NCBI GenBank assembly: GCA_023150835.1
Contig: JAKLKB010000046.1
Coordinates: 1-63,264, forward strand
DNA length: 63,264 bases
From: Myxococcota bacterium
GTDB taxonomy: Bacteria; Myxococcota_C; UBA6777
Reading direction: 5' to 3'
A program made the translations under genes and the position numbers. Positions 48,521 through 63,264 of this stretch are shown here, piece by piece; positions within the stretch are counted from its first letter, which is position 1; each line of letters opens with the position of its first letter. Under the pieces are notes generated by a model. The model did not search any database, was not told the origin of the DNA, and worked only from the letters and a program-made list of their open reading frames with translations.

Positions 48521-51493
48521 ATGACAAAAAAAGATAACTCGAATCCTCCTGCAACTGCCGCAACAAGCAGCAGTTTCTTCTCAGATATCGCGCAGGATCT
48601 GCAAACCCAAGTCGAAGGTCTGCAGGAACCTTCGACCGAAAACACAGGCACTTCATCCTCCTTCGCCCTTCAATCGGAGAACAGCGGCAAGATCTCTCCT
48701 CTTTCCCACGCTGCCTCCAACCAAAGCAGCGATCTCTTTGACGCGCAATCCAACAATCCCCCCGAATCTAGCCTCTATCGAGATCCCGCACGCACAGCAG
48801 CGATCGCCAACGGCCAACACCAAGAAAGCACCCCCTTGCCCTCTGTCCCCGCCATCCTACACGCCGAAGGTCTCGATCAACCCGATCCCGGCGCAACGAT
48901 CATCGAGATGGCCGCCATCGATCTCGACCTGCTCAAGCAGCTCCATCAAGCCCAACAACAAAACGCCCTCCCCCCCAGCGAATCGCGTCACCCTGACGAA
49001 GAAGCCCCTGTCCTCTTGCATTCCGTCGACCTCAACGCCGAAGACGATCCACCCCTCCTCCTTGAAAACCCCACAGCTCCGCCCTCTTCGCCTTCTTCCA
49101 AACTTCCCCCTCCACCCGCCCTCTCAACGCTTTCCTCTCGCGCCCACGCACTCGAACAACAAGCCGTCCCCTCGAACCTCCACACCACCAAATCAAACGA
49201 TGGCTTGTCCCTTGTCTCCGATATCTCTGGCGACAAGTCTTCGAGTCAAGAACAAGATCCCGATGACGAAGGCGACGAAGCTGGCAAAACCCTCATGATG
49301 GGAGCGATCGACGAAGCCACCGCTGCAAAGATCCTTGCCGCCCAAGACAAACACATCGCATCCCTCCAACAAACCGCCGAAGAAGAAACCCTCGACACCC
49401 ACTCCGGCGATCACCACGAAGCCCTCACCCAAGACGGACTCCCTGCCGTCGAAAATCCTGAGTTCGAACTCGGCGTAGGCGACGAGATCTCGATCGAGAT
49501 CGACCTCGACAACGACAGCCCCGCCCTGCCAACTCCACCTCCCAGCATCCCACGTGGCATCATCCCTCCGCCTCCCCCCAGCACCCCCCGCAACGCCCCA
49601 CCACCCGATCTCGACCTACCCCTCGCTCCCCCAAGCGCCCCCCACATCGAACCCCCGCCTCCACCCGATGCCGCCGGTCGTGTCGTCGTCCAAAAGAAAG
49701 CCAGCGCCTCGGTGCTTCGGCAAAATCCCGTCAAATGCCCACAATGCAACCACCTCTCCCGCGATCCGATCTGGTGCGACAACTGTGGCGCGTCGCTACA
49801 AAAGCCCGAACAACCGCCATTTACGTCATCCAAACCCGGTCGCGTCGTTCAGGCCAACAACCAAAACTATCTGCTGCAACGCGATGTCTCTCGATCCAAC
49901 GACCGCGTGATCTGGGAAGCCTCCCTCCAAGGCGAAGAAAATCCCGCGCCCTACATCGTCGAAGAACTCTCTCCCCTGCGTTTTCGATCTGGATACCAAC
50001 AACTACCCGATCTTTCTAAAACCTGCATCCATCGTCCTTTTGCAATCGAAGAACACGAAGACCGCGTCTTTCTGTTTTCTTCACCACTCCCCGGCTACCG
50101 CTTGTCCCGCGCTTTTGAAGAACGACGTGTCTTCTCTTTCTCCGAGATGCGGCACATCCTCAACCACATCGCTCAAGCCATCCAAACCATCCACCAACAC
50201 AACTTGCTTTTCCTCCAATTGGATGCTCGCCAGATCTGGCTGCGCGATGAACGCGATCCCCGTATCCTCGGCCTTGAACGCCTCTACAACGAAAAAGTCC
50301 CCCTCCACCTTCGCCCTCGCCGTGAAGGTTATTCTGCCCCCGAGATCTATCAAGCTCAACCCACTCTCGGCCCTCACACCGATATCTTTGCGCTCGGTGC
50401 TCTTCTTCATTACATGGTCAGCCTCGCCCGACCCTTCAATCACCTTGACACCGCCAAAGTCGATATCCCTTCCCCTCGCGTCCATAACCTCACCTTCCCA
50501 ATGGGACTGGATCATGTGATCTTGCGCGCCCTCCATCCCAAGATCCCCCGACGCTACAAAGATGTCGAATCCTTCTTACGCGAATTCAACCGCGCCATCG
50601 ACGAATTAGAAGAACGCGAAAAACAGCCGAACCTCCGCCTTCAACTCGCAGTCGGCCACGATATCCACATCGGCGTCAGCAAAGGCAACCGTAACCCCGT
50701 CAACCAAGATGCTCTGTTTTGGCGATACGACCGCAATCGCGGAAAAGGACTCTTTCTTGTGGCCGATGGGGTCAGCCATTGCAACTACGGCTCTGGCGAT
50801 CGCGCCTCCTCTCTCGTGATCCAAGCCGCCCGCAAACGCTGGGATACCTTGCTCAAACAACCCATCATGGAAGAGAACACCACCCCCGAACAACGCCGCC
50901 AGATCATCCAATCGATCTTTGACGCCGCAAATGTCGCGATCTGCGCAGAGATCAACCAACGCTACGAACGCATCGACGGCTATGTCGAAGACGTCATGGG
51001 TTCGACCTGCGTGGCTTGCTTCCTTGACGGCTCCCACATGACGCTCGCCAACCTCGGCGATTCACGCGGCTACCTCAAAACCGAACACTACATCGAACAG
51101 ATCACCGTCGATCACGACTACAAAACCGCCCAAATGCAGATCAAACAAGATATGCGTGCCCTGCAAAAACTCACGGGCGGAAGCCTGATCACCCGCTGCG
51201 TCGGCTCATTTCGCAAAGATGAAAAAATGAAGCTGCTACCGCGTGATCTCGAACCTGACTTCTTTGAACTGCGCCTACGCACAGACGATATCATCGTCAT
51301 CTGCTCGGATGGACTCAGCGATTACGCCGGTGCCAACGAAGAAGAATCTCGATACGCCATCGCCAAACTTCTACAAGCCTATCCTGACCCCTTGAGTGCT
51401 TGCTTCTGGCTCATCGCCCTCGCCAACCAAAATGGCGGCGGCGACAACATCTCTGTGATCGAGATCAAAGTCATCGGACCCACACAATCCTAG
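48521..51493 (+). CDS. Fusion: disordered N-terminus, zinc ribbon, degenerate Ser/Thr kinase domain, PP2C phosphatase
   Basis: CPQC...CDNCG. Kinase C-lobe GYSAPE, TDIFALG, RAL...RRY. PP2C motifs NQDA, VADGVS, MGST, NLGDSR, CSDGL, GGDNIS. Confidence 0.88.
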   Translation: MTKKDNSNPPATAATSSSFFSDIAQDLQTQVEGLQEPSTENTGTSSSFALQSENSGKISPLSHAASNQSSDLFDAQSNNPPESSLYRDPARTAAIANGQHQESTPLPSVPAILHAEGLDQPDPGATIIEMAAIDLDLLKQLHQAQQQNALPPSESRHPDEEAPVLLHSVDLNAEDDPPLLLENPTAPPSSPSSKLPPPPALSTLSSRAHALEQQAVPSNLHTTKSNDGLSLVSDISGDKSSSQEQDPDDEGDEAGKTLMMGAIDEATAAKILAAQDKHIASLQQTAEEETLDTHSGDHHEALTQDGLPAVENPEFELGVGDEISIEIDLDNDSPALPTPPPSIPRGIIPPPPPSTPRNAPPPDLDLPLAPPSAPHIEPPPPPDAAGRVVVQKKASASVLRQNPVKCPQCNHLSRDPIWCDNCGASLQKPEQPPFTSSKPGRVVQANNQNYLLQRDVSRSNDRVIWEASLQGEENPAPYIVEELSPLRFRSGYQQLPDLSKTCIHRPFAIEEHEDRVFLFSSPLPGYRLSRAFEERRVFSFSEMRHILNHIAQAIQTIHQHNLLFLQLDARQIWLRDERDPRILGLERLYNEKVPLHLRPRREGYSAPEIYQAQPTLGPHTDIFALGALLHYMVSLARPFNHLDTAKVDIPSPRVHNLTFPMGLDHVILRALHPKIPRRYKDVESFLREFNRAIDELEEREKQPNLRLQLAVGHDIHIGVSKGNRNPVNQDALFWRYDRNRGKGLFLVADGVSHCNYGSGDRASSLVIQAARKRWDTLLKQPIMEENTTPEQRRQIIQSIFDAANVAICAEINQRYERIDGYVEDVMGSTCVACFLDGSHMTLANLGDSRGYLKTEHYIEQITVDHDYKTAQMQIKQDMRALQKLTGGSLITRCVGSFRKDEKMKLLPRDLEPDFFELRLRTDDIIVICSDGLSDYAGANEEESRYAIAKLLQAYPDPLSACFWLIALANQNGGGDNISVIEIKVIGPTQS

Positions 51494-51546
51494 CCATCGC
51501 ACGATCTACCCTTGGCGCTCTGCTCGATACAAGGAAGCTTAACTCC

Positions 51547-52317
51547 ATGATCATCTGCCCTGTCTGCGAAACTGAAAACGAAGCGCACGAACCCTTTTGC
51601 ATCCTCTGTGGTGCAAAACTACAGCCCTCTACCCCAAACGCCCTCCCCAACACGACCTCCTTTACCTCGGAGATCGAAACGGCTCTTGATGATCTCCTCC
51701 CTCTCCCCGATGATATCGGCGAACAACCCGCTTCGTCCCCACACACTCCGTCCCTGCGCCCCAACCCACTCCAAATCAGCCCCTCCCACACACCCAACTC
51801 CGGCACACCAACATTCTCCCCTCAGCGGCTCATGACCACACGCAGCCCCGAGATGCTACCCGTCACAAACACCGCTGTCATCGACGAAAACGATCAAGAC
51901 CTCAGCACACAACACTTCCGCTCCAAACCCGCCCCTACACCCAACCGTACCCCCGTCCTTCCCTCCTACAATACCGAAGTCCCTGCCCCCGGAACCCTCT
52001 GTCTGATCGTCTACTTCCAACGACGCCCCGCCCTCTATTTTCCCGTCATCTACGACGAGATCTTGATCGGGCGCACCGACCCCGCTTCCAACTCTTACCC
52101 CGATCTCGATCTCACTCCCTTCGATCCCGATCTCGCGATATCACGCAAACACACCTACGTCTACCGCGAGCAAGGCGCTTACTTTATCTACCCCATCAGC
52201 AACTCCGGTACCCAAGTCAACCAAGAAATGGTCGATATCGGTACAAAAAAACTCCTCAAAGAAGGCGACGTCGTGATCCTCTCTGGTCGCCTTGCCATCC
52301 GCTTCGCCCGCTCCTAA
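51547..52317 (+). CDS. Zinc-ribbon plus FHA domain protein
   Basis: MIICPVC...FCILCG; FHA motifs IGR, ISRKH, SNSGTQVN, LKEGDVV. Confidence 0.9.
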   Translation: MIICPVCETENEAHEPFCILCGAKLQPSTPNALPNTTSFTSEIETALDDLLPLPDDIGEQPASSPHTPSLRPNPLQISPSHTPNSGTPTFSPQRLMTTRSPEMLPVTNTAVIDENDQDLSTQHFRSKPAPTPNRTPVLPSYNTEVPAPGTLCLIVYFQRRPALYFPVIYDEILIGRTDPASNSYPDLDLTPFDPDLAISRKHTYVYREQGAYFIYPISNSGTQVNQEMVDIGTKKLLKEGDVVILSGRLAIRFARS

Positions 52318-52452
52318 TAAAGTCGCCTCGCCGCCCAGCACACCCACTCCGAAATCCACCTCGCCATCCGCTTCGCCCGCTCCTAATAAAGTCGCCTCAC
52401 CGCCCAGCACACCCACTCCGAAATCCACCTCGCCATCCGCTTTGCCCACTCC
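52294..52452. repeat. 69-bp tandem repeat (2.3 copies) starting inside the FHA gene 3' end
   Basis: GCCATCCGCTTCGCCCGCTCCTAATAAAGTCGCC... at 52294 and 52363, and partially at 52432. Confidence 0.92.
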
Positions 52453-52510
52453 AAAACGGCCCACTTCCCGCCCGAAACGCCCCGATATCTCTGCTGGCCT
52501 TGCCCGTCTC

Positions 52511-52626
52511 ATACGATATCCGAGAGATGCACACAGCAAACGAGAGTGCGTAGATGCCCGATTCTTGGGCAGCCACACCTGTCTGCCCCGGCCTCTTTAC
52601 GATCACGCAACGCGCGGATCTCGTAT
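52511..52626. mobile_element. MITE-like family B, copy 5
   Basis: ATACGATATCCG...GGGCAGCCACACCTGTCTGCCCC...CGATCAC...CGGATCTCGTAT. Its last base is the first + strand base of the G1PDH stop codon. Confidence 0.78.
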
Positions 52627-53987
52627 CACCCGACGCCATGCAAATCGCGCAAGATATCGTCTGCCCAAACGTCCAACAACCCCAGTTCTCCCGCAAGATG
52701 CAAGATGGTATACCGTGCGCGGATATCTTTGCAGTACACCACCGCACGCCGCGCACGTTCATCCGTCACACCGATCTCCCGAAATGTCACAGGACACCCC
52801 GCTGACAACAGCTCTTCGCGGATCGCCAACGCAGGGCGCAGCGTCGATTGAACATCCGCCAAGATCTCCGCCCATCCGCTCTTGAGCCGCGTCAGTCGCT
52901 CTCGCAACACCGCAGGCGTCGGAAACGCTTGCTTGGCATGCAACTCAACCGCCCCATACAGCGAGCCAAAACGCGTCCGTAGCACCTCTTCATAAGACGC
53001 CCACGATGGCAACGCTTTGACACGCTCCTCGATATCCCAAGACGACGGATCCAACGCGGCCAAACGCTCGTACATCGCGGCTGTCGTGATCGTCCCCACC
53101 CCCACTTGGCAGCCATGAAAGTCATGCCCTTCACCCCAAGCAAAGTGCGTCATATCGATGTAATGGCTGATCAGATGCTCCCCGCCGCTCGCTGGAGACG
53201 AAGAACCCGCCAAACTCATCGACATACCCGACAAACACAAACTCGCGCTTAAACGCCCCACCGCCTCGACATCTCGCAGCGGCAACTTCGATGCAACGCC
53301 TTCCAAAAGCGCCGATCCTGCCTCCACAAGCACCATCGCATCCGAAGAATAACCCGCGTCGTTGAGCCGATACCCCAACCGCCAATCCGCGTTGCTCACG
53401 GGCTTGGACAACAGATCTCCAAACCCCGAAGCGATCATCCGCGCTGGTGATCGCGCCATCACATCCAAATCCACCAAACAAGCCAACGGTGGATCACAAG
53501 GCTGCGTCGTCTTCACGCCCTCCGACAACAACGCCGCGATCCCCGAAGTGTAGCCATTCATCGACGGAGCCGTCGCCACCACCGCGTACGGTACCTTGGC
53601 TTGGTAGGCCGCCATCTTTACGATATCGTTGATCGTACCCGCACCCACCGCGATACACGCCACGATCTCCGCCGAAGCACGCAGATGATCTCGCAACACC
53701 CCCGCCTTCCGATCATCCGCCACAGGCACTTCCTCTCCCTCAGCAGCTTCGATCACATACAGCGCGTTTGATATCCCCGCTGCATCGAGGCTTGCGACGA
53801 CGGCCTCACCCGCGATCTTGTGCGTGATCGCATCCACGATCACCAACCAACAACCACGCGGCAAGATCCCTTCCAAATACCCCGCACTTCGGGGCAATAG
53901 CTCCTGCTCCAACACGCACACCTTGGTCTGCAACCGCTCCACAAAACCTCGCAACACAGGCTCCACATCGATCTTGATCCGCGACAA
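52626..53987 (-). CDS. sn-glycerol-1-phosphate dehydrogenase (AraM/EgsA family)
   Basis: AVGAGTINDIVK, TAPSMNGYTS, ASGFGD, SSPASGGEHLISH, HGCQVG, IRARYTIL. GGAGG precedes the TTG start. Confidence 0.88.
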   Translation of the reverse strand: MSRIKIDVEPVLRGFVERLQTKVCVLEQELLPRSAGYLEGILPRGCWLVIVDAITHKIAGEAVVASLDAAGISNALYVIEAAEGEEVPVADDRKAGVLRDHLRASAEIVACIAVGAGTINDIVKMAAYQAKVPYAVVATAPSMNGYTSGIAALLSEGVKTTQPCDPPLACLVDLDVMARSPARMIASGFGDLLSKPVSNADWRLGYRLNDAGYSSDAMVLVEAGSALLEGVASKLPLRDVEAVGRLSASLCLSGMSMSLAGSSSPASGGEHLISHYIDMTHFAWGEGHDFHGCQVGVGTITTAAMYERLAALDPSSWDIEERVKALPSWASYEEVLRTRFGSLYGAVELHAKQAFPTPAVLRERLTRLKSGWAEILADVQSTLRPALAIREELLSAGCPVTFREIGVTDERARRAVVYCKDIRARYTILHLAGELGLLDVWADDILRDLHGVG

Positions 53988-54158
53988 CCAGCACCTCCCA
54001 TCTCAGCTTTTTTATCCACAAAAATAAAGATCACAAAAGAAATCAATGAGATAACGTTCTGGCTTTTACCTCACCCACAAAAAAAATACAACGGACGTGA
54101 ACCTTTTTTCCATACCCAGCGTACCTACGCGTGCTGAAATTTCCACCCGTGTTATCGT

Positions 54159-54226
54159 CTCTTGACATCGTCAAAAAACTTCACCCCTCTTTCCCTCTTG
54201 ACACCTTCAAAAGACATACACAACAT
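54159..54226 (+). promoter_or_regulatory. Tandem palindromic operator-like sites overlapping TTGACA -35 hexamers
   Basis: CTCTTGACATCGTCAAAA (54159-54176) and CTCTTGACACCTTCAAAA (54195-54212) are 16/18 identical and 36 bp apart. The -10 match is weak (CAACAT 54221-54226). Confidence 0.5.
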
Positions 54227-54365
54227 CACCACCCAACTCTTTTTCGTCGGTAGGGAAACCTACCGAGATATCGCCCTTATCCATTCACTGCGACGTCCTG
54301 TCTCGTGGTTTCACCACGCAGGCCGAGCCCCAACCCTTGCTTGCGAGCGCACAGGAGAAAAAACG

Positions 54366-54479
54366 ATGAAATACGGTATGAACGCCCGCGTCCTTGGGAA
54401 TCCGGCCACCCTTGAACGCACACAACAAGACTGGGTCGGATGCGCGGTGAATACTCTTGATGCCCACAGTCATCCCTGA
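54366..54479 (+). CDS. Possible 37-aa small protein or leader peptide (MKYGMNARVLGNPATLERTQQDWVGCAVNTLDAHSHP)
   Basis: AGGAG (54353-54357) lies 8 nt before ATG 54366; the ORF ends in TGA. Confidence 0.35.
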   Translation: MKYGMNARVLGNPATLERTQQDWVGCAVNTLDAHSHP

Positions 54480-55110
54480 CCTGCGGTATCCGGCGAAGCT
54501 CCCCTCGCCACACACACCGCGCTTTTTGACTTCGCACTTTTGGGCTTGTCACTCTCAACCAACGTCGACCTGTGACCTTGACCAAAAGCCTCCTCGAACA
54601 CAAAGCGCCGCGCAACCCTGTTGCGCAACACTCCCTGCTCTTTGAAAACAAAACCTCTCGCGTCCGATCGAGTCTCGCTTGGTTCTCCCAAGCCTCGCTC
54701 TTTTACGCAGACGAAAATCGTGGATACCACGGCCTCTTTCAACTCTGAGCCCCCAAGCAACGCATTGATCGAGGTCACACCACACACGTGCGGCGATCTC
54801 TCAGGTGGGAGCGGTTGTGTGTGGTTCCCGGTGCCTTTCATACCACCTTGGCACCTTTGGGACGATAGCTTGCGCTCGCCCTCCTTCTTTGGGTGACCCT
54901 TGCTTCTTGCCTCCGCACCGTCTATCGCTTGGATCCCTGTCTTCTCTGCTCTCCAACACCCTCGTTGGCGTCCCTTTGAAGACGCTTCCTCATCTTTCCT
55001 TGGAAGCTCTTCGCACGACGAACAGCACCGCACAGCAGACAAGATCACACCCTCAGAGAAAAGAACTCCCCTCGATTGCCTACGCGAATGGTTTGAGCAA
55101 ACCCCTTCCT

Positions 55111-55146
55111 GCGGATACATGAAATGCCATGTATCCGCTTTTTTTT
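55111..55146 (+). terminator. Rho-independent terminator
   Basis: Perfect 11-bp stem GCGGATACATG / CATGTATCCGC, 6-nt loop, then T8. Confidence 0.88.
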
Positions 55147-55246
55147 GCGCTCCGCTCACAACCTACACACTCCCTGTGCCGAACCTCCCGATCAGATGCG
55201 CTCACACGCCGCGATATCGAAACCACCCACAACTCACGGATGTCCC

Positions 55247-58200
55247 ATGCCTGACCTCCTCTTGTGGAAACAACTTCTCTCTCTTGATCTTGCTTCGCTT
55301 CCTGCTCCCCCCCCCCACACGCTCCACGCCCTTTTGCTCGCGCAAGCCGATCTACCCATCGAAAAGAAAACACCTTATCTTCAAACACTTGCACAATATT
55401 TCCCACACGCCCCCGCTTCTCTGCGCTCCGCCATCGCCATGTTCCTTGGTGGCTCACACGGCCCGATGGCATGGGCCTTTTGGCTCGATGCACTCGACCA
55501 AGCGGATGCAGATACTTTGCCTTTTCTCCTCCAAGCCTACCGTCAAAGCTGCGCCCATGATCCCGCACGATGGGTCCATGCGCTGTTTCACCCCGATCCT
55601 GCCATACGCCTCCAAGCCCTTTCCAAACGCCCCGAGGCCTTTCCCTCTCACTACGAGCTGTTGCTGTTTCCCGATCCCAACGCCCACGCCGCTTTGTGCG
55701 AACGCTTTCGACATCGCCCTCCCCAAGGCCCAGAGATCGCCACCCTGCTCCAGCTCCATCAAGCCCAAGCCATCGACGTATCCACCCTCCAACCTTGGCT
55801 ACACGAAGCGTTCCTCCGACCACAAAACGCCCTCGATCTACTCCACCACCTTCCCGCCCCCTCCACCCAAAGCACCTACCTCCCGCCTGATCCGGATGCC
55901 CTCTGGCATCACCTCGCCTCTTCTCCCCAACAGTCCGACCTTCTCGACGTCTTGCTTGCTCTGCTTTGGCCCGCTCCTTCTTCCCCCTCGCAAGCCTGCA
56001 CCGTCTTCCTTCGCTCCGCTTGCCTCGCGATCCAACAAAACAAACTCGCCCCATCACAGCATCTTCGCCTTGCCACCGCCCTTTTGCGCGTCGGCTCTCG
56101 TTCGACCCAATGGACCGAAGACGCCGCCCGCTTGCTCTTGAGCGCGATCCCTCGGCTCTTTGGAACACGCTATCTCTCCCTCTCTTTGCGCCAACAAGTA
56201 GCCCGCCAAATCCTCGATGATCGCCCTGCCGTCCGCCTCTTTGATCCACTCGCAGAATGGATCGACACCCCTCTTTGTCTTCGACCCGACGGACATTTCG
56301 ATCTGATCGTCATCGCAGGTCTGATGGGCCTTGATAAATCCAATCCCTTTCAACACCTGCTTTCTCATCTCTCCCCTCAAATCCTCTTTGACGCTGTCCT
56401 CCGACACCCCGAAGGCGCAGTACGGATGCTTCGCCTTCAGCCGCATAGTTCCGTCGATCGGCTCAGTTACGACGCCCTGCTCGGCCTCGTCCTTCAAAAA
56501 GCACACACCTCCCCTCAATTCGTGGCTTACGCTCTACTCCATCTCCCCAACAAGCCTCTCGCTCTCTTCTGCGAACAGATGGCCGAACAGCCCCCTGCCC
56601 TCGACCTTTTGCTCCCATACTTGACCCACGCCCTTGATCTCCTGTGCCTCCCTCCCTCCCGAAAAAACCGAAAGCTCCAGCATCTCGCGGCTGTCTTGGC
56701 CAAAACCCTTTCTCCACAACACGCACGCCCCCTGCTTTATGCTCTCGCTCAAACCGATCAAAACGCCCTTTCCATCGAGATCCTCGAACAGATATCCCGA
56801 CGCCTCCCTCCCGATCAACTCGCCCACAAGATCGCCCAACTCCCCCTGCGCTCCTTGCGTTCGATGCTCTCTCTGATCGATCAAGCCAGCGGCTTCTCTC
56901 TTGAAGCCGAAGAATCCGTCCTCCTCACTCTCCAACACCATCCCGATCCCTTCATCCAGACGTGGCTCCGTCAACAACAACGCCTCCGACTCGCTCAAGG
57001 CAGCGAGAGCCGACAACGCATCGAAGATACCCCTCGACCACTCCCCGAAGCCACGCTCCAACGCATCGCTCGCTGCGCAGATATCGATCTCGAAGACGCA
57101 CTCCGTCCTTGCTACGACTTCCCCACCAAAGGTCTTTGTCACGCACTTCAACGCCGAAAAAAACCCACCCCTGAAGTCGAAGTCCTTGCCGCCCTATTAA
57201 TTTGCCACGATCCGCTCCATCTCATCCTCGAACAATGGAAACGTTTTTCTGACGAATCTCCCGCCCTTTACGAGCAACTCGATCAACGGATGGCAACGCG
57301 CTGCTCCGATATGCGCGCCCTGCCCCTGTGTGGTCTTGTCTGGATGTATCGGTGGGAGCAACACCTTCACACCCTCGCACCTGCCCTACTCCGATCTCCC
57401 GAAGCCTTCGCCTCCTTTCTTCAACAAGGGCTTCAGATCCCCATCATGCCCTTGCGATGGCGCTTTTGGAAAGCAGCTTGTTTGCTTCTCAAAAAATGGC
57501 GATGGCACCCTCCCGCGCTTTTGCACCTCCTCTTCTCTGCCGAACTCGAACAACTCTTGCTCTCTGTGATCACTCTCGGCCACTCCGCCCCAAACACCGC
57601 TGCTACCCTCTTCTTCGACGAAACCCTTCAATCCATCGCCACCGATATCTTGCTCCTCCTTCACAAACTCCCCGCCGCACTGCCGACTGTGCGCTCTCTC
57701 CATAACCATCTCTTGCCTTTTCTTTCCAGCCTCCCCGAAAACCTCCGTACCACCGTACTCCTCTGGATGCGCGAACAAGACTTTTCTTTCCTCTCTCCCC
57801 CTGCTCTCCTCTCCCACACACACAACACGGAAAGCTTGCTCCACTCCATCCACCATCTCCACGCACCCGATGCCCTCGCACTCTATTGCCTCGAAGACTC
57901 GCCGCTCCTCGTTGAAGCCGCAGCCACCAAGCTCATCGGATACGGCGAATCCGGCTTACAACGCCTGCTCCCTCTGCTTTCTCTCTCCCACCAAAACACT
58001 CCCCCTGCGCAACTCCGCGTGCTGATCCGACTTGTCTCCTCATGGCCCGAAAGCCCCAGCCTTCGCGCACTTCGCGCCCAACTTCAACTAGCCCTCGACG
58101 CCATATCTTCCGACAACACCGCTCCTCATCCCTCCGTCTCTCCCAACGATCCCGTCCCCTACCAACCCTCCACACCGCCAAGCCTTCCCATCGAAGATCG

Positions 58201-60874
58201 CCTCCCCACGCTGCTCCCCGCACCCAACGCTCCTCAACGCTCCTCTTCAACCACCCCCCCCACCATCGAGATCCAACCCTGCTTTCTGCTTACGCTTGCC
58301 TTTCTTGAACGCGGAGAACGCTCGCTCTCTCGATATCTTCCCCTTCTTGCCCGCATCCCCGCGAACTCTCCCTCCCCGATCTCAAAACGCCCTTCACACC
58401 GACACATCCACATCCACCACCGAGCGCAAGAAACGCCGCTCTCTCCTCGCAACACTCCCGCGATGTGGTTGACAGAGAACGATTGGGAGCGACTTCTTCG
58501 TCTCGGGATATCCCAAGAGGAATGTGCGATCTGGTTTGCTACATCCGATCAATACCACGCTTACGCCCCCGCCATCCGCTCTCTCTTACAGCTACTTCCT
58601 GAAAACACCCTATCCACCGACACTCTCACACCATCCACACCACATACCCAAAACACCCTATCCACCGACACTCTCACACCATCCACACCACATACCCAAA
58701 ACGCCCTATCCACCGACACTCTCACACCATCCACACCACATACCCAAAACGCCCTATCCACCGACACTCTCACACCATACGCCCCCAAAACCCTATCCAC
58801 CGAGCGGATCGCGGCTCGCCTTGATGCGCTGGAGGGATTTCTTCTTTGCGGCCCTTCTCGCCTTGAAGAACTTCGTCTGCAAGCGGCAAAACGGCTTTTG
58901 CACTATGGCCGATGGCTTGGTTATCCTTTGTTGCTGCATACAACTCTTTACCAACAAAAAAGCAGCGAAGAACTACTTTCGATCTTGCGCCTTCTGCCCA
59001 TTTCTTTGATCGAAAGCACCGCTCACGGGCTTTTGATGAACCATGCCGACCCCTCGTTCGAGCAGATCTTTTTGAAAACGGTCTCCTTGCTTCCGCTGAC
59101 GCTCGAACAAAAAGAACGAATCGCTCGGCCTTTTTTGCAACACGCCCAACATGCCCTCACCCAAGAGCGTGCGCTGTCTTTGCATCGCCTACCCACCGAG
59201 CGCACCGAATCCATCCAAAAGCTTGCACGCCTCTGTGCTTGGGGAATCCGCCTTGGGCGGCAGATCTCAGGAAAAGTCTTTCGAATTCGTTTGATCGCAG
59301 GCCGTGATCTCGGATACACCCGCCTCGAAACACCGCGTATCTTCATCAATCCCCTTCCGCTGTTGCGCCAAGAACGCCACGCTGAGGAGATCGTCAAAGG
59401 TTTGATCTTGCACGAGTTGGGACATCACCTCTACCACGCTTCCCCCTCTTCTCGGGAGATCTGGAAACAAGCCCAACAAGAGGGCATTCAACCGCTGCTC
59501 AACCTTGTCGCCGATGAACACCTCGAACGAAACCTGCGCGCTAAAGAGCAAGAGTTCGGCCATTCCCTCCAATCTCTCGCTGCCTACGGGTTCCAACACA
59601 ACCAACGCGAGATCCGCGCCTTCTTTCTTCTCGATCAGCTAGGCCCCTCGGCATTGGAGACCCTGACACAATCTCCTCCCACAGCAGCCCGTATGCACGG
59701 GTGCATCCGCATCCACACAGGCGGGATCCTGCGCGAGGCTGAACGACGAGGGGCCAGCTTTTCTCGATTTATCCGCGCTTTGCGCATGGGACTTGGAAAC
59801 CGCTTCCGCGATCCCCTCGTTGCCAAAGCCCTCAACCTCTTCCACAAAGACTTCCGCCACCTCGATATGCAAGGACTCTATCAGATCGCCACCAAACTCC
59901 GCGATATCTTCTCTTACCAAACCCGCCTACTCGATGACCTCGACACCGAACATACCCTTGGTTGCGACCTGACCGAGATCTTTCGTGACAGCTACGGCCT
60001 CACCGACGAAGAACTCCAACGCGCCATCGAAGAAGAACTCTACCCACGCCCACACGCCCAACCCTCCGCCCTCGACGAGATCGAACGCCGAAATATCAAC
60101 CTCTCCAAAGATCTGCACTTTTCCCCCATCCACCACGTCCAACCGCTGCTCTACAGCGCCGAAGCCGCCCAACAATACGCTCAACAAGTCGCCCATGAAA
60201 GCCGCAATCTCCGACGCTACCTCCACCAGCTCGGACTCCACCTCCGTCCCCAAAAACGCCGCGTCCAAGGCCATCACATCGACACCCATGTCCTTCGTTC
60301 CGCGATCTTGCGCGGTGACCCACGCTTTCTCACCGCCCGACGGCTGACTCCACACAACCACCTTTTTCTTGGCGTCTTGATCGACTGCTCTGGCTCGATG
60401 AACGGCGACTCCCTCGAAAAAGCCAAAGCCTTCGCAAGTTTAATCGCCGAAGCCACCGTATCCATCGAAGGGATCGATGCACGCTTCTTCGGATTCAACG
60501 ACACCACACTCTTTGATGCTGGTGATGCCCGTCATTGCGCCATCCACGCACTACAAAGCGCAGGCGGAAACAATGACGCCGCAGCAATGCTCCATCTCGC
60601 CAAACTTGCCCTCGCAAGCAAACGAAAAGCCCGTATCCTCGTCATGATCAGCGACGGTAGCCCCACCGAATGCTCCGTCACCGCCTTGACCGCTCTGGTT
60701 CAACGCATCACCCAAAAAATGCACATTCTCTGCGCACAAGTCGCTGTCCGACCCCTTCCTTCCGCCTCTTTCCCCCACTACATCGAGCTGACCAACGATG
60801 ACATCGCTCTCTCCACCCATCGCTTCGGACAACTCATCGCACGCCTTGTCGCCCAAAGTCTCCGCCGTACCTGA
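55247..60874 (+). CDS. Giant (~1875 aa) Leu-rich helical (HEAT/ARM-like) protein with HExxH metallopeptidase-like segment and C-terminal vWA domain
   Basis: GLILHELGHH...NLVADEHLE; vWA MIDAS IDCSGSM, GGNND, ISDGSPT. ATG 55247 chosen because the ORF's first ATG (55124) lies inside the terminator. Confidence 0.85.
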   Translation: MPDLLLWKQLLSLDLASLPAPPPHTLHALLLAQADLPIEKKTPYLQTLAQYFPHAPASLRSAIAMFLGGSHGPMAWAFWLDALDQADADTLPFLLQAYRQSCAHDPARWVHALFHPDPAIRLQALSKRPEAFPSHYELLLFPDPNAHAALCERFRHRPPQGPEIATLLQLHQAQAIDVSTLQPWLHEAFLRPQNALDLLHHLPAPSTQSTYLPPDPDALWHHLASSPQQSDLLDVLLALLWPAPSSPSQACTVFLRSACLAIQQNKLAPSQHLRLATALLRVGSRSTQWTEDAARLLLSAIPRLFGTRYLSLSLRQQVARQILDDRPAVRLFDPLAEWIDTPLCLRPDGHFDLIVIAGLMGLDKSNPFQHLLSHLSPQILFDAVLRHPEGAVRMLRLQPHSSVDRLSYDALLGLVLQKAHTSPQFVAYALLHLPNKPLALFCEQMAEQPPALDLLLPYLTHALDLLCLPPSRKNRKLQHLAAVLAKTLSPQHARPLLYALAQTDQNALSIEILEQISRRLPPDQLAHKIAQLPLRSLRSMLSLIDQASGFSLEAEESVLLTLQHHPDPFIQTWLRQQQRLRLAQGSESRQRIEDTPRPLPEATLQRIARCADIDLEDALRPCYDFPTKGLCHALQRRKKPTPEVEVLAALLICHDPLHLILEQWKRFSDESPALYEQLDQRMATRCSDMRALPLCGLVWMYRWEQHLHTLAPALLRSPEAFASFLQQGLQIPIMPLRWRFWKAACLLLKKWRWHPPALLHLLFSAELEQLLLSVITLGHSAPNTAATLFFDETLQSIATDILLLLHKLPAALPTVRSLHNHLLPFLSSLPENLRTTVLLWMREQDFSFLSPPALLSHTHNTESLLHSIHHLHAPDALALYCLEDSPLLVEAAATKLIGYGESGLQRLLPLLSLSHQNTPPAQLRVLIRLVSSWPESPSLRALRAQLQLALDAISSDNTAPHPSVSPNDPVPYQPSTPPSLPIEDRLPTLLPAPNAPQRSSSTTPPTIEIQPCFLLTLAFLERGERSLSRYLPLLARIPANSPSPISKRPSHRHIHIHHRAQETPLSPRNTPAMWLTENDWERLLRLGISQEECAIWFATSDQYHAYAPAIRSLLQLLPENTLSTDTLTPSTPHTQNTLSTDTLTPSTPHTQNALSTDTLTPSTPHTQNALSTDTLTPYAPKTLSTERIAARLDALEGFLLCGPSRLEELRLQAAKRLLHYGRWLGYPLLLHTTLYQQKSSEELLSILRLLPISLIESTAHGLLMNHADPSFEQIFLKTVSLLPLTLEQKERIARPFLQHAQHALTQERALSLHRLPTERTESIQKLARLCAWGIRLGRQISGKVFRIRLIAGRDLGYTRLETPRIFINPLPLLRQERHAEEIVKGLILHELGHHLYHASPSSREIWKQAQQEGIQPLLNLVADEHLERNLRAKEQEFGHSLQSLAAYGFQHNQREIRAFFLLDQLGPSALETLTQSPPTAARMHGCIRIHTGGILREAERRGASFSRFIRALRMGLGNRFRDPLVAKALNLFHKDFRHLDMQGLYQIATKLRDIFSYQTRLLDDLDTEHTLGCDLTEIFRDSYGLTDEELQRAIEEELYPRPHAQPSALDEIERRNINLSKDLHFSPIHHVQPLLYSAEAAQQYAQQVAHESRNLRRYLHQLGLHLRPQKRRVQGHHIDTHVLRSAILRGDPRFLTARRLTPHNHLFLGVLIDCSGSMNGDSLEKAKAFASLIAEATVSIEGIDARFFGFNDTTLFDAGDARHCAIHALQSAGGNNDAAAMLHLAKLALASKRKARILVMISDGSPTECSVTALTALVQRITQKMHILCAQVAVRPLPSASFPHYIELTNDDIALSTHRFGQLIARLVAQSLRRT
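58602..58802 (+). repeat. In-frame 48-bp (16-aa) tandem repeat, ~4 units, in the vWA gene
   Basis: CCCTATCCACCGACACTCTCACACCAT at a 48-bp period (N(T/A)LSTDTLTPSTPHTQ). Confidence 0.92.
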
Positions 60875-60934
60875 TTCGTTTTTGTTTTGTTGGATGGTTT
60901 TGTGGGGCGCTGTGCGTTCGTGGTGTTTTGTTTT

Positions 60935-61057
60935 GTGGGGTGCTACCCCACGCCCCGCAAGGGACTGTCGCCCCTTGACCCCCGTGTTGGCGAAGAGATC
61001 GTTGTTTTCAACACAAACCATTGTGTCGCTTGAAAAGGTCGCGGACACGGGCTTTTT
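60935..61057 (+). repeat. Dispersed repeat family A, copy 3
   Basis: GTGGGGTGCTACCCCACGCCCCGCAAGGGA...CCCGTGTTGGCG...CGCTTGA...GACACGGGCTTTTT. Confidence 0.85.
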
Positions 61058-61107
61058 AGAATAGGATAGAGGTTGTACGGAATCCGTCGGATATACGTCC
61101 GCATGAT

Positions 61108-61550
61108 GTAGGGGCGGTTCGCGAACCGCCCGCATTGGCATAAGGTGAAGAAAATAGGATGGAATGTCATGGAGATACGGAGAGAGGAAGGGTTGAAAAG
61201 GTGGTTGTCTTCGCGTGACCTCACCCCCCCGACGCTTCGCGTCACCCCCCTCTCCACGCGGCTTACCATCCCCCACATTTTTTGCATGGACGAAGATGGC
61301 AACGAAACGATGGAATCCACAAGGTAGGGTGCACATGGCGGGATGGCGGGATGGCGGGATGGCGGGATGGCGCAAGCCCTGCCCCGACGAAAACAACGGA
61401 TGATGCGGTGGACGTGATACGATATGTGACCCGTCCCTGTAGGGGCAACCCTTGCGGTTTCCCGAACGACGGGCATTTGACGCAATATCCTGCGCCGCCC
61501 CTGTAGGGGCAGCCCCCCGTGGCTGCCCAATCGACGGTCATTTGACGCAA
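61108..61550. repeat. Cluster of GTAG-type REP-like palindromes plus (GGCGGGAT)x4
   Basis: GTAGGGGCGGTTCGCGAACCGCCC (61108), GTAGGGGCAACCCTTGCGGTTTCCC (61439), GTAGGGGCAGCCCCCCGTGGCTGCCC (61503). The last two form a 64-bp tandem unit. Confidence 0.8.
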
Positions 61551-61597
61551 ACAGACGGCCAAGCCTCACCACAAAACCCACACCATGCCTCGCGTTC

Positions 61598-61710
61598 GTG
61601 GGGTTTCACCCCACACCCCACAAGGGACTTTCGCCCCTTGACCCCCTATCGGCGAAACGAGCCATCCTTCTTCAAACCAACGGCTCTGTCGCTTGCACAC
61701 TCAACACACA
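61598..61710 (+). repeat. Dispersed repeat family A, copy 4 (degenerate 3' end)
   Basis: GTGGGGTTTCACCCCACACCCCACAAGGGACTTTCGCCCCTTGACCCC...CTCTGTCGCTTG...AACAC. Confidence 0.8.
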
Positions 61711-61879
61711 CCTTACTTCGCCTTTCGGGACGGCTTCCGCTTCGGTCGCTTGCCGCTTCGCTTGCTGCGCTTCCTTTGCTTCTGCCTCCCGCGTCTTCGT
61801 TCGGCCACTTTACCTACCGCACTCTACGTAGACACCATGCTCGTTTTCGCCAAGGGTAAAAGGGTAAAAGGGACAAGGG

Positions 61880-63264
61880 TCAATACCTGAGAAGACGAAA
61901 GCCGAGGTTGCCGTCGCGAATCGTCGGCGCATCGCTGCTGCGAGACGCTGAGCGCACGAGCCCCGCGTGGCTGTTCCAACCACCACCTCGAGACACACGC
62001 AACGTACTACTACCGCTACGTAGTGGATCTTGCGTACCCAGTCCTTCATACGAGCCGTACACATCCATCGTCCACTCGTACACATTCCCCAACATATCCT
62101 TCAATCCCCACCCATTCGCGCTCTTTCCGCCCACCGGATGCGTTTTGCTGTCACTATTGCCACCATACCAAGCCACATCGTCTAGCTCCCCATGACGTGC
62201 CCCTGTGCTTCCCGCTCGTGCTGCATACTCCCACTCCGCTTCCGTCGGCAGTCGCCAACCCTTGCATCCAAAGATTCCCCTCTCCGTCTCTGTGCAAGCC
62301 GCCAATCCTTGCGCTTCCGACAGCTTCTCCGCAAACTCCCGCGCTTCGTGCCAACTCACCTGCTCCACAGGACAGTTGTCACCACACGACGAGAAATGCG
62401 ATGGATTCCTCCCCATCAATGCCTTGTACTGCCCTTGCGTCACTTCGCTCTCTAACATCCAGAATCCTTTGCTGATCGTGACACTTCGCTGTGGCGACTT
62501 ATTATCTGGAATTATATAATGCGACTTATTATCTGGACTTGTATCAAAAATGAACCCTCTTCTATATCCTTCCACAGGTTTTGACGAACTTAGGCTCGGC
62601 TCATTCTCTGAACTCCCCATCGTGAACGAACCCGCTGGAATCCAGCGCATCGCGAATGTCGCTCCCTTTACCCTAAAGCTATGACGCGCTCCTTCTGACG
62701 GCTTCGACAGCCTTTCCACAATGTTACAACCCTCTTTCTGTCCCAAGCGACATGCCCTGCGATACCACAGCAACGCCTCCGAGGACGAACGACCCTCCTC
62801 TGCTTTCCCTTTCTCCAAGGCTTTTAAGCCTTCATGCATTTGACAAGCTTCGGCATACTTGACCCCACACGCCGTTTTCAGCCAATACAACGCAAGCTGT
62901 TGCTCCTTTCCCACCTGCCCTTTTCCTCGCGCAAACCATGCCTCACCACGCGCTTTGCAGCCTTCCGCATATCCCTTCTCGCACGCCAACTTGTACCATC
63001 TATCCGCATCGCCCCACTTCGACGGCTCCGATTCCGCACCCTTGCACCACTTCAGCCCCATCTCCCAAGCCTTCGCACACCCTCCATCTTCTCCCAAGCT
63101 GCACGCCTTCGCATACCACTCGCTCGCTTTCCCCAACGACCGCCCTTCTTCTCTTTTCCCCCGCGCCATGTACCTCCTCACCATCCGACGTTTCCGCTCC
63201 AACGCCCGTTCCACTCTCTGTTGCTCTAGCCCCTCTCGAAGCGACTTCAACGCCCTTTCCAATC
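61880..63264 (-). CDS. Sel1-like (Cys-type) repeats plus C-terminal FGE-sulfatase/SUMF1 (CLec-fold) domain; 5' end probably beyond the window
   Basis: Four WYxxAC..G...GC-type repeats; IPAGSFTMGS, EVTQGQY, PVEQVSW, RLPTEAEWEYAARAG, GLKDMLGNVYEW, RGGGW, GFRL. Confidence 0.93.
   Translation of the reverse strand, partial: LERALKSLREGLEQQRVERALERKRRMVRRYMARGKREEGRSLGKASEWYAKACSLGEDGGCAKAWEMGLKWCKGAESEPSKWGDADRWYKLACEKGYAEGCKARGEAWFARGKGQVGKEQQLALYWLKTACGVKYAEACQMHEGLKALEKGKAEEGRSSSEALLWYRRACRLGQKEGCNIVERLSKPSEGARHSFRVKGATFAMRWIPAGSFTMGSSENEPSLSSSKPVEGYRRGFIFDTSPDNKSHYIIPDNKSPQRSVTISKGFWMLESEVTQGQYKALMGRNPSHFSSCGDNCPVEQVSWHEAREFAEKLSEAQGLAACTETERGIFGCKGWRLPTEAEWEYAARAGSTGARHGELDDVAWYGGNSDSKTHPVGGKSANGWGLKDMLGNVYEWTMDVYGSYEGLGTQDPLRSGSSTLRVSRGGGWNSHAGLVRSASRSSDAPTIRDGNLGFRLLRY

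Follow-up and report, generated by a model that had tools for sequence, protein, structure and literature searches.

A double-pseudoknot RNA linked to the gene of a giant solenoid/HExxH/MIDAS protein in Myxococcota and other bacteria

What is encoded in the long region that precedes a giant gene of a myxococcotal genome? We analyzed a stretch of 63,264 nucleotides (nt) from a Myxococcota bacterium (NCBI GenBank assembly GCA_023150835.1, contig JAKLKB010000046.1; here contig C204 of genome G000), termed the window below. In the window, a gap of 1,259 nt separates an Fe-ADH_2-type gene on the minus strand (52626-53987) from the giant gene on the plus strand, which starts with the ATG at 55247, where the encoded sequence MPDLLLW fits the N-terminus M-x-D-L-x-L-W found throughout the family. 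A sequence-only reading of the window had proposed that positions 54230-55146 form a structured, terminator-bounded non-coding unit, either a large trans-acting non-coding RNA (ncRNA) or a long attenuator leader of the giant gene. Here we show that an RNA with a double-pseudoknot fold is transcribed from this gap, that it is linked to the giant gene in relatives, and that it is present in a single copy in the 11 genomes that were searched whole.

Transcription and non-coding character of the gap

Six metatranscriptome runs from three studies matched the window, and four of them were examined over positions 51000-62000. The RNA contigs assembled from these runs have neither a strand nor exact ends, their word depth is a poor measure of the RNA level, and uncovered parts do not indicate silence. 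In run X13, a contig of 1159 nt covered 54147-55305 with a word depth of 88.5 and 0 differences to the window, and run X16 yielded a contig for 54155-55028 with a depth of 119.4, likewise with 0 differences. The gap was also represented in X17 (54175-55098, depth 13.8, 7 differences) and in X19, where three pieces were distributed across 54208-55102 (depth 2.6-2.9, 0 differences). The continuous stretches measured 0.9-1.16 kb and came from three studies. Since the bins of the neighboring Fe-ADH gene (52835-53935) had a word depth of 0-1.9 in the same runs, the signal is attributed to RNA and not to carry-over of DNA. Contigs of the giant gene reached a depth of 3-6 in X13 and X16, and none were obtained from X17 or X19.

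The transcribed unit starts at or before approximately position 54147. The 5' boundary at 54230 of the sequence-only reading thus had to be abandoned, as the RNA contigs start at 54147-54208, which places the start of the unit some 85 nt or more further upstream; the 3' boundary at 55146 stood. The unit, the elements at its ends and the one short reading frame that deserves mention are the following:

54079-54131, plus strand: genus-conserved block, 79% identical to the congeneric genome G002 with unalignable flanks; candidate promoter region
54147-55146, plus strand: transcribed non-coding RNA unit of about 1 kb, defined by RNA contigs; 5' end approximate, 3' end at the terminator
54366-54479, plus strand: frame of 37 codons with AGGAG 8 nt before the ATG; retained in the congeners, not coding-like
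55111-55146, plus strand: intrinsic terminator with an 11-bp stem (6 GC pairs), a 6-nt loop and T8

The block at 54079-54131 is situated just 5' of the starts of the RNA contigs (54147, 54155, 54175, and 54208). A promoter scan of this region gave 0 sites, i.e., no confident sigma-70 match. At the other end of the unit, the contigs of X17 and X19, which derive from two studies, stop at 55098 and 55102, just 5' of the terminator stem, and this can be taken as a weak hint of the 3' end. The contig of X13 passes the terminator and reaches position 55305 inside the giant gene. In the congeneric genome G001, the terminator has an identical stem and an altered loop, and analogous terminators were found in the genomes G003, G004, and G005 and in Nannocystaceae-like loci. 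The perfect terminator recognized in the sequence-only reading was confirmed. In the Nannocystaceae-like relatives, the RNA extends over approximately 0.55-0.6 kb from promoter to T-run. The assignment of the RNA to the plus strand follows from the frequent G-U pairs, the terminator, and the promoters present in relatives.

None of the three longest open reading frames (ORFs) of the gap had a Pfam match, and the same holds true for an ORF of 105 amino acids (aa) at 54162-54479, which includes the 37-codon frame. In an alignment (A2) with the congeneric genomes G001 and G002, indels of 1, 5, and 7 nt cross the ORFs of the gap. The differences within the 37-codon frame numbered 5, 4, and 0 at codon positions 1, 2, and 3 in G001 and 10, 12, and 15 in G002, and a block of 40 nt inside this frame (54381-54420) showed zero substitutions among the three congeners. 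Both the codon-position pattern and the invariant central block point to a constraint on 54366-54479 that acts at the nucleotide rather than at the protein level. A decayed or small protein gene was rejected on the basis of the lacking Pfam matches of the ORFs, the frame-breaking indels in the congeners, and the non-coding codon pattern, which agrees with the gene-free gap described in the sequence-only reading. ARAGORN reported no tRNA or tmRNA.

With respect to conservation, the whole gap is 91% identical in G001, and G002 matches in blocks of 76-82% identity until its contig ends. In two other genera, the match is confined to 54780-54864, on the same strand and upstream of the homologue of the giant gene. 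The part emphasized in the sequence-only reading, 54385-54515, is conserved in the genus only; the widely conserved part of the RNA is 54779-54927.

A conserved core with two pseudoknots

Judged by comparative sequence analysis, the core of approximately 150 nt at 54779-54927 forms a new RNA motif. It is composed of two helices (P1 and P2), a first pseudoknot (PK1), a variable element P3, a second pseudoknot (PK2), and a 3' motif:

54779-54825, plus strand: helix P1; 14 of 16 pairs with double changes in 74 sequences
54826-54829/54859-54862 and 54830-54835/54850-54855, plus strand: helix P2 with a UUU bulge; 10 of 10 pairs with double changes
54804-54808 and 54843-54847, plus strand: PK1, formed by GGUGG of the P1 apical loop and CCACC of the P2 loop, recognized by loop complementarity
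54788-54793 and 54913-54918, plus strand: PK2, formed by GUGCGG of the 5' strand of the P1 internal loop and CCGCAC; spans the variable P3 (54863-54912)
54918-54927, plus strand: conserved 3' motif CCRUCKAY, CCGUCUAUCG in G000

Helix P1 can be divided into P1a (54779-54786/54818-54825), P1b (54794-54798/54813-54817), and P1c (54800-54802/54809-54811). An early comparison of five sequences revealed double compensatory changes at 9 of 26 predicted pairs. A covariance model, R1, was built on the core, and the nested pairs were tested with 74 matches aligned by this model. In this alignment, which was fitted to R1 and is biased toward the structure, 95.6% of the cells were standard-paired and 24 of the 26 pairs were changed on both sides (337 cells). 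For none of these measures did any of 500 shuffles reach a value as high, and sliding the 3' partners by 1-3 columns lowered the pairing to 40-48%. The covariation looked for on the basis of the sequence-only reading was thus found.

The two pseudoknots were analyzed separately from the nested pairs. For PK1, the P2 loop was the exact complement of the sequence's own P1 loop in 61 of 73 cases, a count that omits one partial match (L093). When the loops were shuffled among the sequences, 5000 trials averaged 37.3 such cases and reached 48 at most. Among the variant loops, 16 of 19 were matched exactly and the rest mostly through G-U pairs; the covarying variants were GGCGG/CCGCC, GAUGG/CCAUC, GACGG/CCGUC, AGUGG/CCACU, and GGUAG/CUACC. 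A structure-blind MAFFT alignment (A9) was made of 45 of the 52 matches having CCRUCGAY within 95 nt; L041, L049, L072, L084, L087, L104, and L114 were left out. In A9, the columns of PK1 were paired in 97.8% and those of PK2 in 98.1% of the cells, and all six pairs of PK2 showed double changes. At one of these pairs AU occurred 24 times and GC 15 times, at another CG 26 times and UA 13 times. In view of such distinct pair types, the covariation of PK2 is unlikely to have arisen by chance, although kin sequences are not independent of each other.

The core also has invariant unpaired and junction bases. Possible pairing of the CCRUCGAY motif with the 5' flank, as a closing helix P0, was considered, but a column-pair scan and a helix search in the individual sequences gave inconsistent partners. 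The remainder of the approximately 1-kb RNA is conserved within the genus only, and relatives carry 5' and 3' domains of comparable size.

The unit as a whole is also predicted to be strongly folded. For the plus strand of 54230-55146, the minimum free energy (MFE) was -306.9 kcal/mol, which corresponds to z = -8.4 with 20 dinucleotide shuffles and to z = -6.6 in a second set of 15 shuffles. These values lie beyond those of nine coding control segments of 917 nt from the window (z from -0.3 to -3.8), the most negative of which was 56000-56916 in the 5' part of the giant gene; the minus strand of 54230-55146 gave z = -4.9. The hairpins listed in the sequence-only reading were all present at their coordinates, those at 54247-54266 and 54297-54322 base by base and the others in the MFE fold. 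Two of them are the helices P1 (54779-54825) and P2 (54826-54862), which are universally conserved. Outside of the core, these are:

54247-54266, plus strand: 5' hairpin with a GAAA loop, from base-by-base reading; two double compensatory changes in G001
54297-54322, plus strand: hairpin CCTG..CGTGGT/ACCACG-CAGG, from base-by-base reading; kept in G001 and G002
54610-54626, 54669-54697, and 54719-54731, plus strand: three genus-level hairpins, from the MFE fold and the congener alignment
54953-54968 and 54978-55012, plus strand: two hairpins of the 3' domain, from the MFE fold; stems mostly kept in G001

The stem TCGGTAGG/CCTACCGA of the 5' hairpin at 54247-54266 is replaced by TCGGGGGG/CCTCCCGA in G001. 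The hairpin at 54297-54322 shows one change of C-G to U-G in the congeners in addition to changes in the loop. In G002, the stem CGTGG/CCACG of the hairpin at 54719-54731 is altered to GTGCA/TGCAC and thus compensated, and the GCTTGG/CCAAGC stem of the hairpin at 54669-54697 is kept with a longer loop. The hairpin at 54978-55012 has one change in the 3' arm in G001; the contig of G002 ends before both hairpins of the 3' domain.

A search of Rfam 15 gave 0 matches in the whole window at the gathering threshold and 0 matches at E ≤ 10 in the region 53900-55350. When the Rfam models were applied to six related loci, none matched on the motif and the sole match was a group II intron elsewhere. In the locus of Plesiocystis pacifica (L092), where the RNA adjoins the giant gene, a group II intron domain (RF02001, 108.6 bits) is located at 16983-17153, approximately 5 kb downstream of the giant gene. 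In the part of the literature covered by our search, no paper linked a structured RNA to vWA/MoxR genes, although the motif tables of discovery papers could list the motif under a different name, and a search by term in the survey of vWA-MoxR systems by Kaur et al. (2020; PMC7159879) gave 0 occurrences of "ncRNA" or "noncoding". Within the limits of Rfam 15 and the literature thus searched, the RNA family is previously undescribed.

Linkage of the RNA to the giant gene and its MoxR partner

R1 found one match in each of the six genomes of the GTDB phylum of the window, including G005 (E = 1.5e-14), which was outside the set used for building the model. Five further genomes also contained a single copy each, which makes up the 11 genomes searched whole. 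A pattern scan in combination with R1 revealed additional copies in high-GC metagenome-assembled genomes (MAGs) of Nannocystaceae and in metagenome contigs, located approximately 350-410 nt before the estimated start of the giant-gene homologue where the sequence sufficed. Nine of 22 matches to the IUPAC pattern had no R1 match at E ≤ 1 and were treated as chance hits.

To collect relatives of the giant gene, genome contigs were searched with aligned sequences of the conserved C-terminal part (685 aa) of the protein; this gave 167 relatives, from which 80 loci were kept. R1 matched 62 of these 80 loci (E ≤ 8e-4). Among the 18 loci without a match, 12 have an ORF that runs off the contig and two more have less than 700 nt of upstream sequence. 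In 59 of the 62 cases, the motif precedes the giant gene on the same strand, and the median spacing between the 3' end of the motif and the first possible start codon is 238 nt. The conserved N-terminal motif of the protein was recognized in 28 loci, in 24 of which 214-487 nt separate it from the RNA motif. Two of the eight spacings above 600 nt (L048 and L083) are artificial, as the giant ORF contains a stop or frameshift there. The loci with the motif are labeled as many families of Myxococcota, as Planctomycetota (Pirellulaceae, Gemmatales, Phycisphaeraceae, Rhodopirellula), as Verrucomicrobiales, and as Vulcanimicrobiota; the few Proteobacteria labels on MAG bins may be unreliable.

Several loci deviate from this arrangement. 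In L053 and L055, the RNA is inverted beside the start of the giant gene; both copies are complete, contain P3 as well as the 3' motif and score 56 and 48 bits, and that of L055 has its own promoter, TTGACA-N17-TAATAT, 194 nt upstream. In L114, the RNA is located just downstream of the giant gene. Unrelated genes are present between RNA and giant gene in L052, L095, L108, L059, and G005, in the last case an insertion of 7.7 kb with M1 and M42 peptidases, and in G003 a convergent ORF of 200 aa lies between the terminator of the RNA and the giant gene. Four genomes with ample upstream sequence and no adjacent motif contained exactly one copy each elsewhere: at a distance of approximately 100 kb in Minicystis rosea, more than 1 Mb in a Pirellulaceae chromosome, approximately 19 kb in a third genome, and outside the fetched giant-gene locus in the fourth. 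These four copies have unrelated neighbors and no giant-gene homologue within the 15 kb fetched. Of 70 regions upstream of the core, 8 contained a strong sigma-70-type promoter, at a distance of 194-352 nt, compared with 0 in two control sets.

The protein encoded downstream of the RNA can be described as follows:

55247-60874, plus strand: giant gene for a protein of 1875 aa with a HEAT-like alpha-solenoid, a HELGHH motif, and a C-terminal MIDAS-type vWA domain

Pfam gave a weak vWA match only, searches of NCBIfam and of PDB sequences gave weak vWA or chance matches only, and a protein atlas placed the protein in a cluster of hypothetical proteins, 21% of which have HEAT_2. The HExxH motif (HExGHH..H) and DxSxS are invariant in 36 sequences, in which the MIDAS residues are D523-x-S525-x-S527, NND 585-587, and SDG 612-614, all of them invariant (C-terminal numbering). 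The C-terminal 685 aa are approximately 40% identical across phyla, the N-terminal part 20-25%. In the AlphaFold model of the C-terminal part, which has a mean predicted local distance difference test (pLDDT) score of 83, the MIDAS domain of MDN1/Rea1 is the nearest structural match of the vWA domain (Z 20.8, root-mean-square deviation (rmsd) 2.5 Å, 197 residues), and NorD was found with Z 17.9; the fold of the HExxH region was barely probed by the structure searches. The model of the N-terminal 1190 aa is all-helical, with approximately 60 helices (mean pLDDT 76) and the solenoid at about aa 1-1120, and found generic HEAT/ARM solenoid matches only, with low template modelling (TM) scores. A tandem peptide repeat, LSTDTLTPSTPHTQN, is present in about four copies at aa ~1120-1185 (near position 58800), between the solenoid and the C-terminal module, and was modelled as disordered (pLDDT ~30).

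To define conserved neighbors, all ORFs of the 45 loci of at least 18 kb were compared with each other. In 43 of these 45 loci, the giant gene is immediately followed on the same strand by a gene for a MoxR-type AAA+ protein (AAA_5/AAA_3, approximately 375 aa), so that the proposal to tabulate MoxR genes proved useful. This MoxR gene is the only conserved neighbor besides the giant gene; the other large clusters consisted of opposite-strand or overlapping frames of these two genes. The comparison of sequences thus indicates a conserved module of the RNA, the giant solenoid/HExxH/MIDAS protein, and the MoxR AAA+ protein. G000 also has a second MoxR paralogue (C97:5485-6576) with 51% identity and one in-frame TAA.

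Some further features of the window were observed. Between 45000 and 63264, the GC skew of the plus strand is -0.24 to -0.36 in windows of 3 kb and locally -0.64, irrespective of the strand of the genes; both the Fe-ADH gene (minus strand) and the giant gene (plus strand) lie in DNA with a C-rich plus strand. Copies of a short hairpin-rich repeat are present at 52508-52630, 60927-61000, and 61595-61671, with 87% identity between 60932-60983 and 61595-61646. They are represented by a summed RNA word depth of 400-490, by many contigs that are 90-95% alike, and by joints between copies. This repeat looks like a multi-copy expressed family and probably corresponds to the local repeat families mentioned in the sequence-only reading. 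Just upstream of the Fe-ADH gene, 48521-52317 contains a gene for a fused Ser/Thr kinase-PP2C phosphatase (990 aa) followed by a zinc-ribbon/FHA gene (305 aa), neither of which is a conserved neighbor in other giant-gene loci. A tandem direct repeat of two 69-nt units with 99% identity (52300-52437) is located at the end of the zinc-ribbon/FHA ORF.

Possible modes of action and relation to known systems

The explanation that we favor, and to which we assign about an even chance, is that the RNA is independently transcribed and acts as a trans partner of the giant protein and the MoxR ATPase, with coupling by read-through where the genes are adjacent. The gap would then encode an abundant, structured, independently transcribed ncRNA of approximately 1 kb, which may serve in trans as a scaffold, cofactor, or substrate partner in an RNA/giant protein/MoxR module. 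In G000, the giant gene would probably be transcribed largely by read-through of the terminator, which would couple the expression of both. The inverted, downstream, gene-separated, and unlinked copies together with the occurrence of own promoters favor a trans-acting RNA over a pure leader; physical binding, action in trans, and coupling by read-through are what we infer. A more specific form of this explanation may tentatively be put forward, in which the RNA would be an obligate subunit or substrate of a Midasin-like machine built from the giant solenoid/zincin/MIDAS protein and a dynein-type AAA+ ring, the solenoid recognizing the core and the ATPase loading, remodelling, or releasing the RNA.

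A serious rival, though in our view the less likely of the two, is a cis-regulatory leader, in which the core would be a riboswitch aptamer or a site bound by the giant protein or by MoxR and would govern terminator read-through into the giant/moxR operon. As with riboswitches and protein-binding leaders, the core is pseudoknotted, a terminator precedes the gene, and the RNA is usually found upstream on the same strand, i.e., in 59 of 62 copies, at the short distances to the first possible start and to the conserved N-terminal motif given above. A lenient scan that had no shuffled control detected terminator-like hairpins in the interval from core to start in 19 of 28 loci, the contig of X13 passes the terminator, and aptamers typically have complex pseudoknotted folds with invariant junction bases. 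However, about one in ten copies is inverted, displaced, or unlinked. The two inverted copies, the one downstream copy, the gene-separated copies, and the four unlinked single copies all speak against a leader. Moreover, the RNA serves a single gene family and occurs once per genome in the 11 genomes. In G000, the terminator lies far from the core, approximately 185 nt past the last conserved base (54927), without an evident overlapping expression platform, and the core is preceded by 5' domains of 165 to more than 600 nt.

Several observations weigh against the explanation by a trans-acting RNA. The 3' ends of 51 of the 59 same-strand motifs are located at most 600 nt before the first possible start, which is leader-like. 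In the metagenome contig L020, a T-run is situated approximately 25 nt before the ATG of the giant gene, and in four loci a terminator-like hairpin was found 14-31 nt before the start. Hairpins or T-runs so close to the start leave little room for a separate promoter and fit attenuation. Abundant terminated leaders are common for riboswitches, and the contrast in depth between RNA and giant gene is thus not discriminating. The inverted and unlinked copies could be recent rearrangements, though they score 48-70 bits. In G000 itself, the MoxR orthologue (69% identical) is encoded on another contig (C73:2342-3451). Among 121 genomes sampled widely from the phylum of G045, one had the RNA and two had the giant module, and 119 had neither (giant module at E ≤ 1e-30), the absence of the RNA being weak evidence as 32 candidates per genome were searched with stricter filters. 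Finally, G081 has a distant homologue of the giant protein and gave no RNA match even when searched alone. Action in trans and a leader function are compatible rather than exclusive. Both alternatives of the sequence-only reading therefore stay alive for this unit, a structured and transcribed non-coding region that ends in a terminator and is evolutionarily linked to the giant gene; neither of them is proven.

It is improbable by comparison that the ncRNA is free-standing and has a general role in the cell, in which case its adjacency to the giant gene would reflect inherited synteny without functional coupling. The single copy in each of the 11 genomes, the own promoter and terminator, the abundance, and the survival of unlinked copies would fit such an RNA. 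The adjacency persists, however, across phylum labels between giant proteins of 20-25% (N-terminal) and approximately 40% (C-terminal) identity, the other neighbors are not conserved, and the 119 sampled genomes mentioned above have neither the RNA nor the giant module. We consider it very improbable that the RNA is catalytic, by self-cleavage or in another way, and processes the transcript ahead of the giant gene. Its two pseudoknots and invariant unpaired bases form a double-pseudoknot architecture that recalls glmS/HDV-type folds, but the RNA contigs of the three studies are uninterrupted through the core, no Rfam ribozyme matched at E ≤ 10, and no conserved cleavage-site signature was identified. 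Hardly credible either is an mRNA for one or several small proteins, such as that of the 37-codon frame, with a structured 3' untranslated region. The AGGAG 8 nt before its ATG resembles a Shine-Dalgarno sequence, and short frames after purine-rich stretches were seen by eye in G003, G005, L021, L037, and L038; yet the codon-position pattern is non-coding, the peptides are unrelated between lineages, the ORF of 105 aa that includes the frame lacks a Pfam match, and the frame of the Nannocystaceae includes a hairpin that covaries (GTCGC-TTCG-GCGAC to ATCGC-CTCG-GCGAT). The link to retrons or another reverse transcriptase (RT)-based defence system suggested by the sequence-only reading can be practically dismissed. 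In its favor there is no more than a broad similarity, a structured RNA next to a large helical-repeat protein, whereas the four RVT_1 matches of the genome lie on C183, C85, and C63 and none on C204, no RT-like family is among the conserved neighbors of the 45 loci, PADLOC gave 0 matches for the giant protein, and a single copy per genome (11 genomes) and the lack of a mobile-island signature do not fit.

Among known systems, the arrangement is reminiscent of Ro60/Rsr, whose TROVE module combines a HEAT ring with a vWA domain and where a Y RNA gene adjoins rsr in bacteria. In both cases, a structured ncRNA gene of variable orientation and low copy number adjoins a gene for a helical-repeat protein with a MIDAS-type vWA domain, and Ro60/TROVE chains align along the whole C-terminal model in Foldseek, but with TM scores of 0.19-0.25 and an rmsd of approximately 24 Å. 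In contrast to Ro60, the giant protein has no TROVE match in Pfam (E ≤ 0.01), is approximately 3.5 times larger, contains HExxH, and is paired with MoxR. The RNA, with a length of 0.6-1 kb and a double pseudoknot, also differs from the small stem-loop Y RNAs and does not match Y RNA models of Rfam.

With NorQ/NorD, CbbQ/CbbO, CobS/CobT, and Midasin/Rea1, the last consisting of an AAA_5 ring, a helical linker, and MIDAS, the locus shares a MIDAS vWA domain with DxSxS and, in 43 of the 45 related loci, an adjacent AAA_5/AAA_3 gene. Midasin acts on a ribonucleoprotein, the pre-60S particle. Unlike the bacterial MoxR-vWA systems, for which an RNA component is undescribed in the sources covered, the conserved locus studied here includes a dedicated structured RNA. 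In its length, complex fold, good expression, and patchy phylogenetic spread, the RNA resembles OLE, GOLLD, ROOL, HEARO, and raiA, of which OLE has dedicated protein partners. It differs from them by lacking a match to the Rfam models, by its association with one gene family, and by a conserved core of only about 150 nt with lineage-specific flanks.

If the RNA is a subunit or substrate of a Midasin-like machine as outlined above, the locus would represent the first MoxR-vWA system containing an RNA. If it is instead a riboswitch, it would represent a new class that controls an uncharacterized machine. The RNA gives an experimental handle on the giant HEAT/HExxH/MIDAS proteins, for which the cultured carriers Plesiocystis pacifica SIR-1 and Minicystis rosea DSM 24000 are available.

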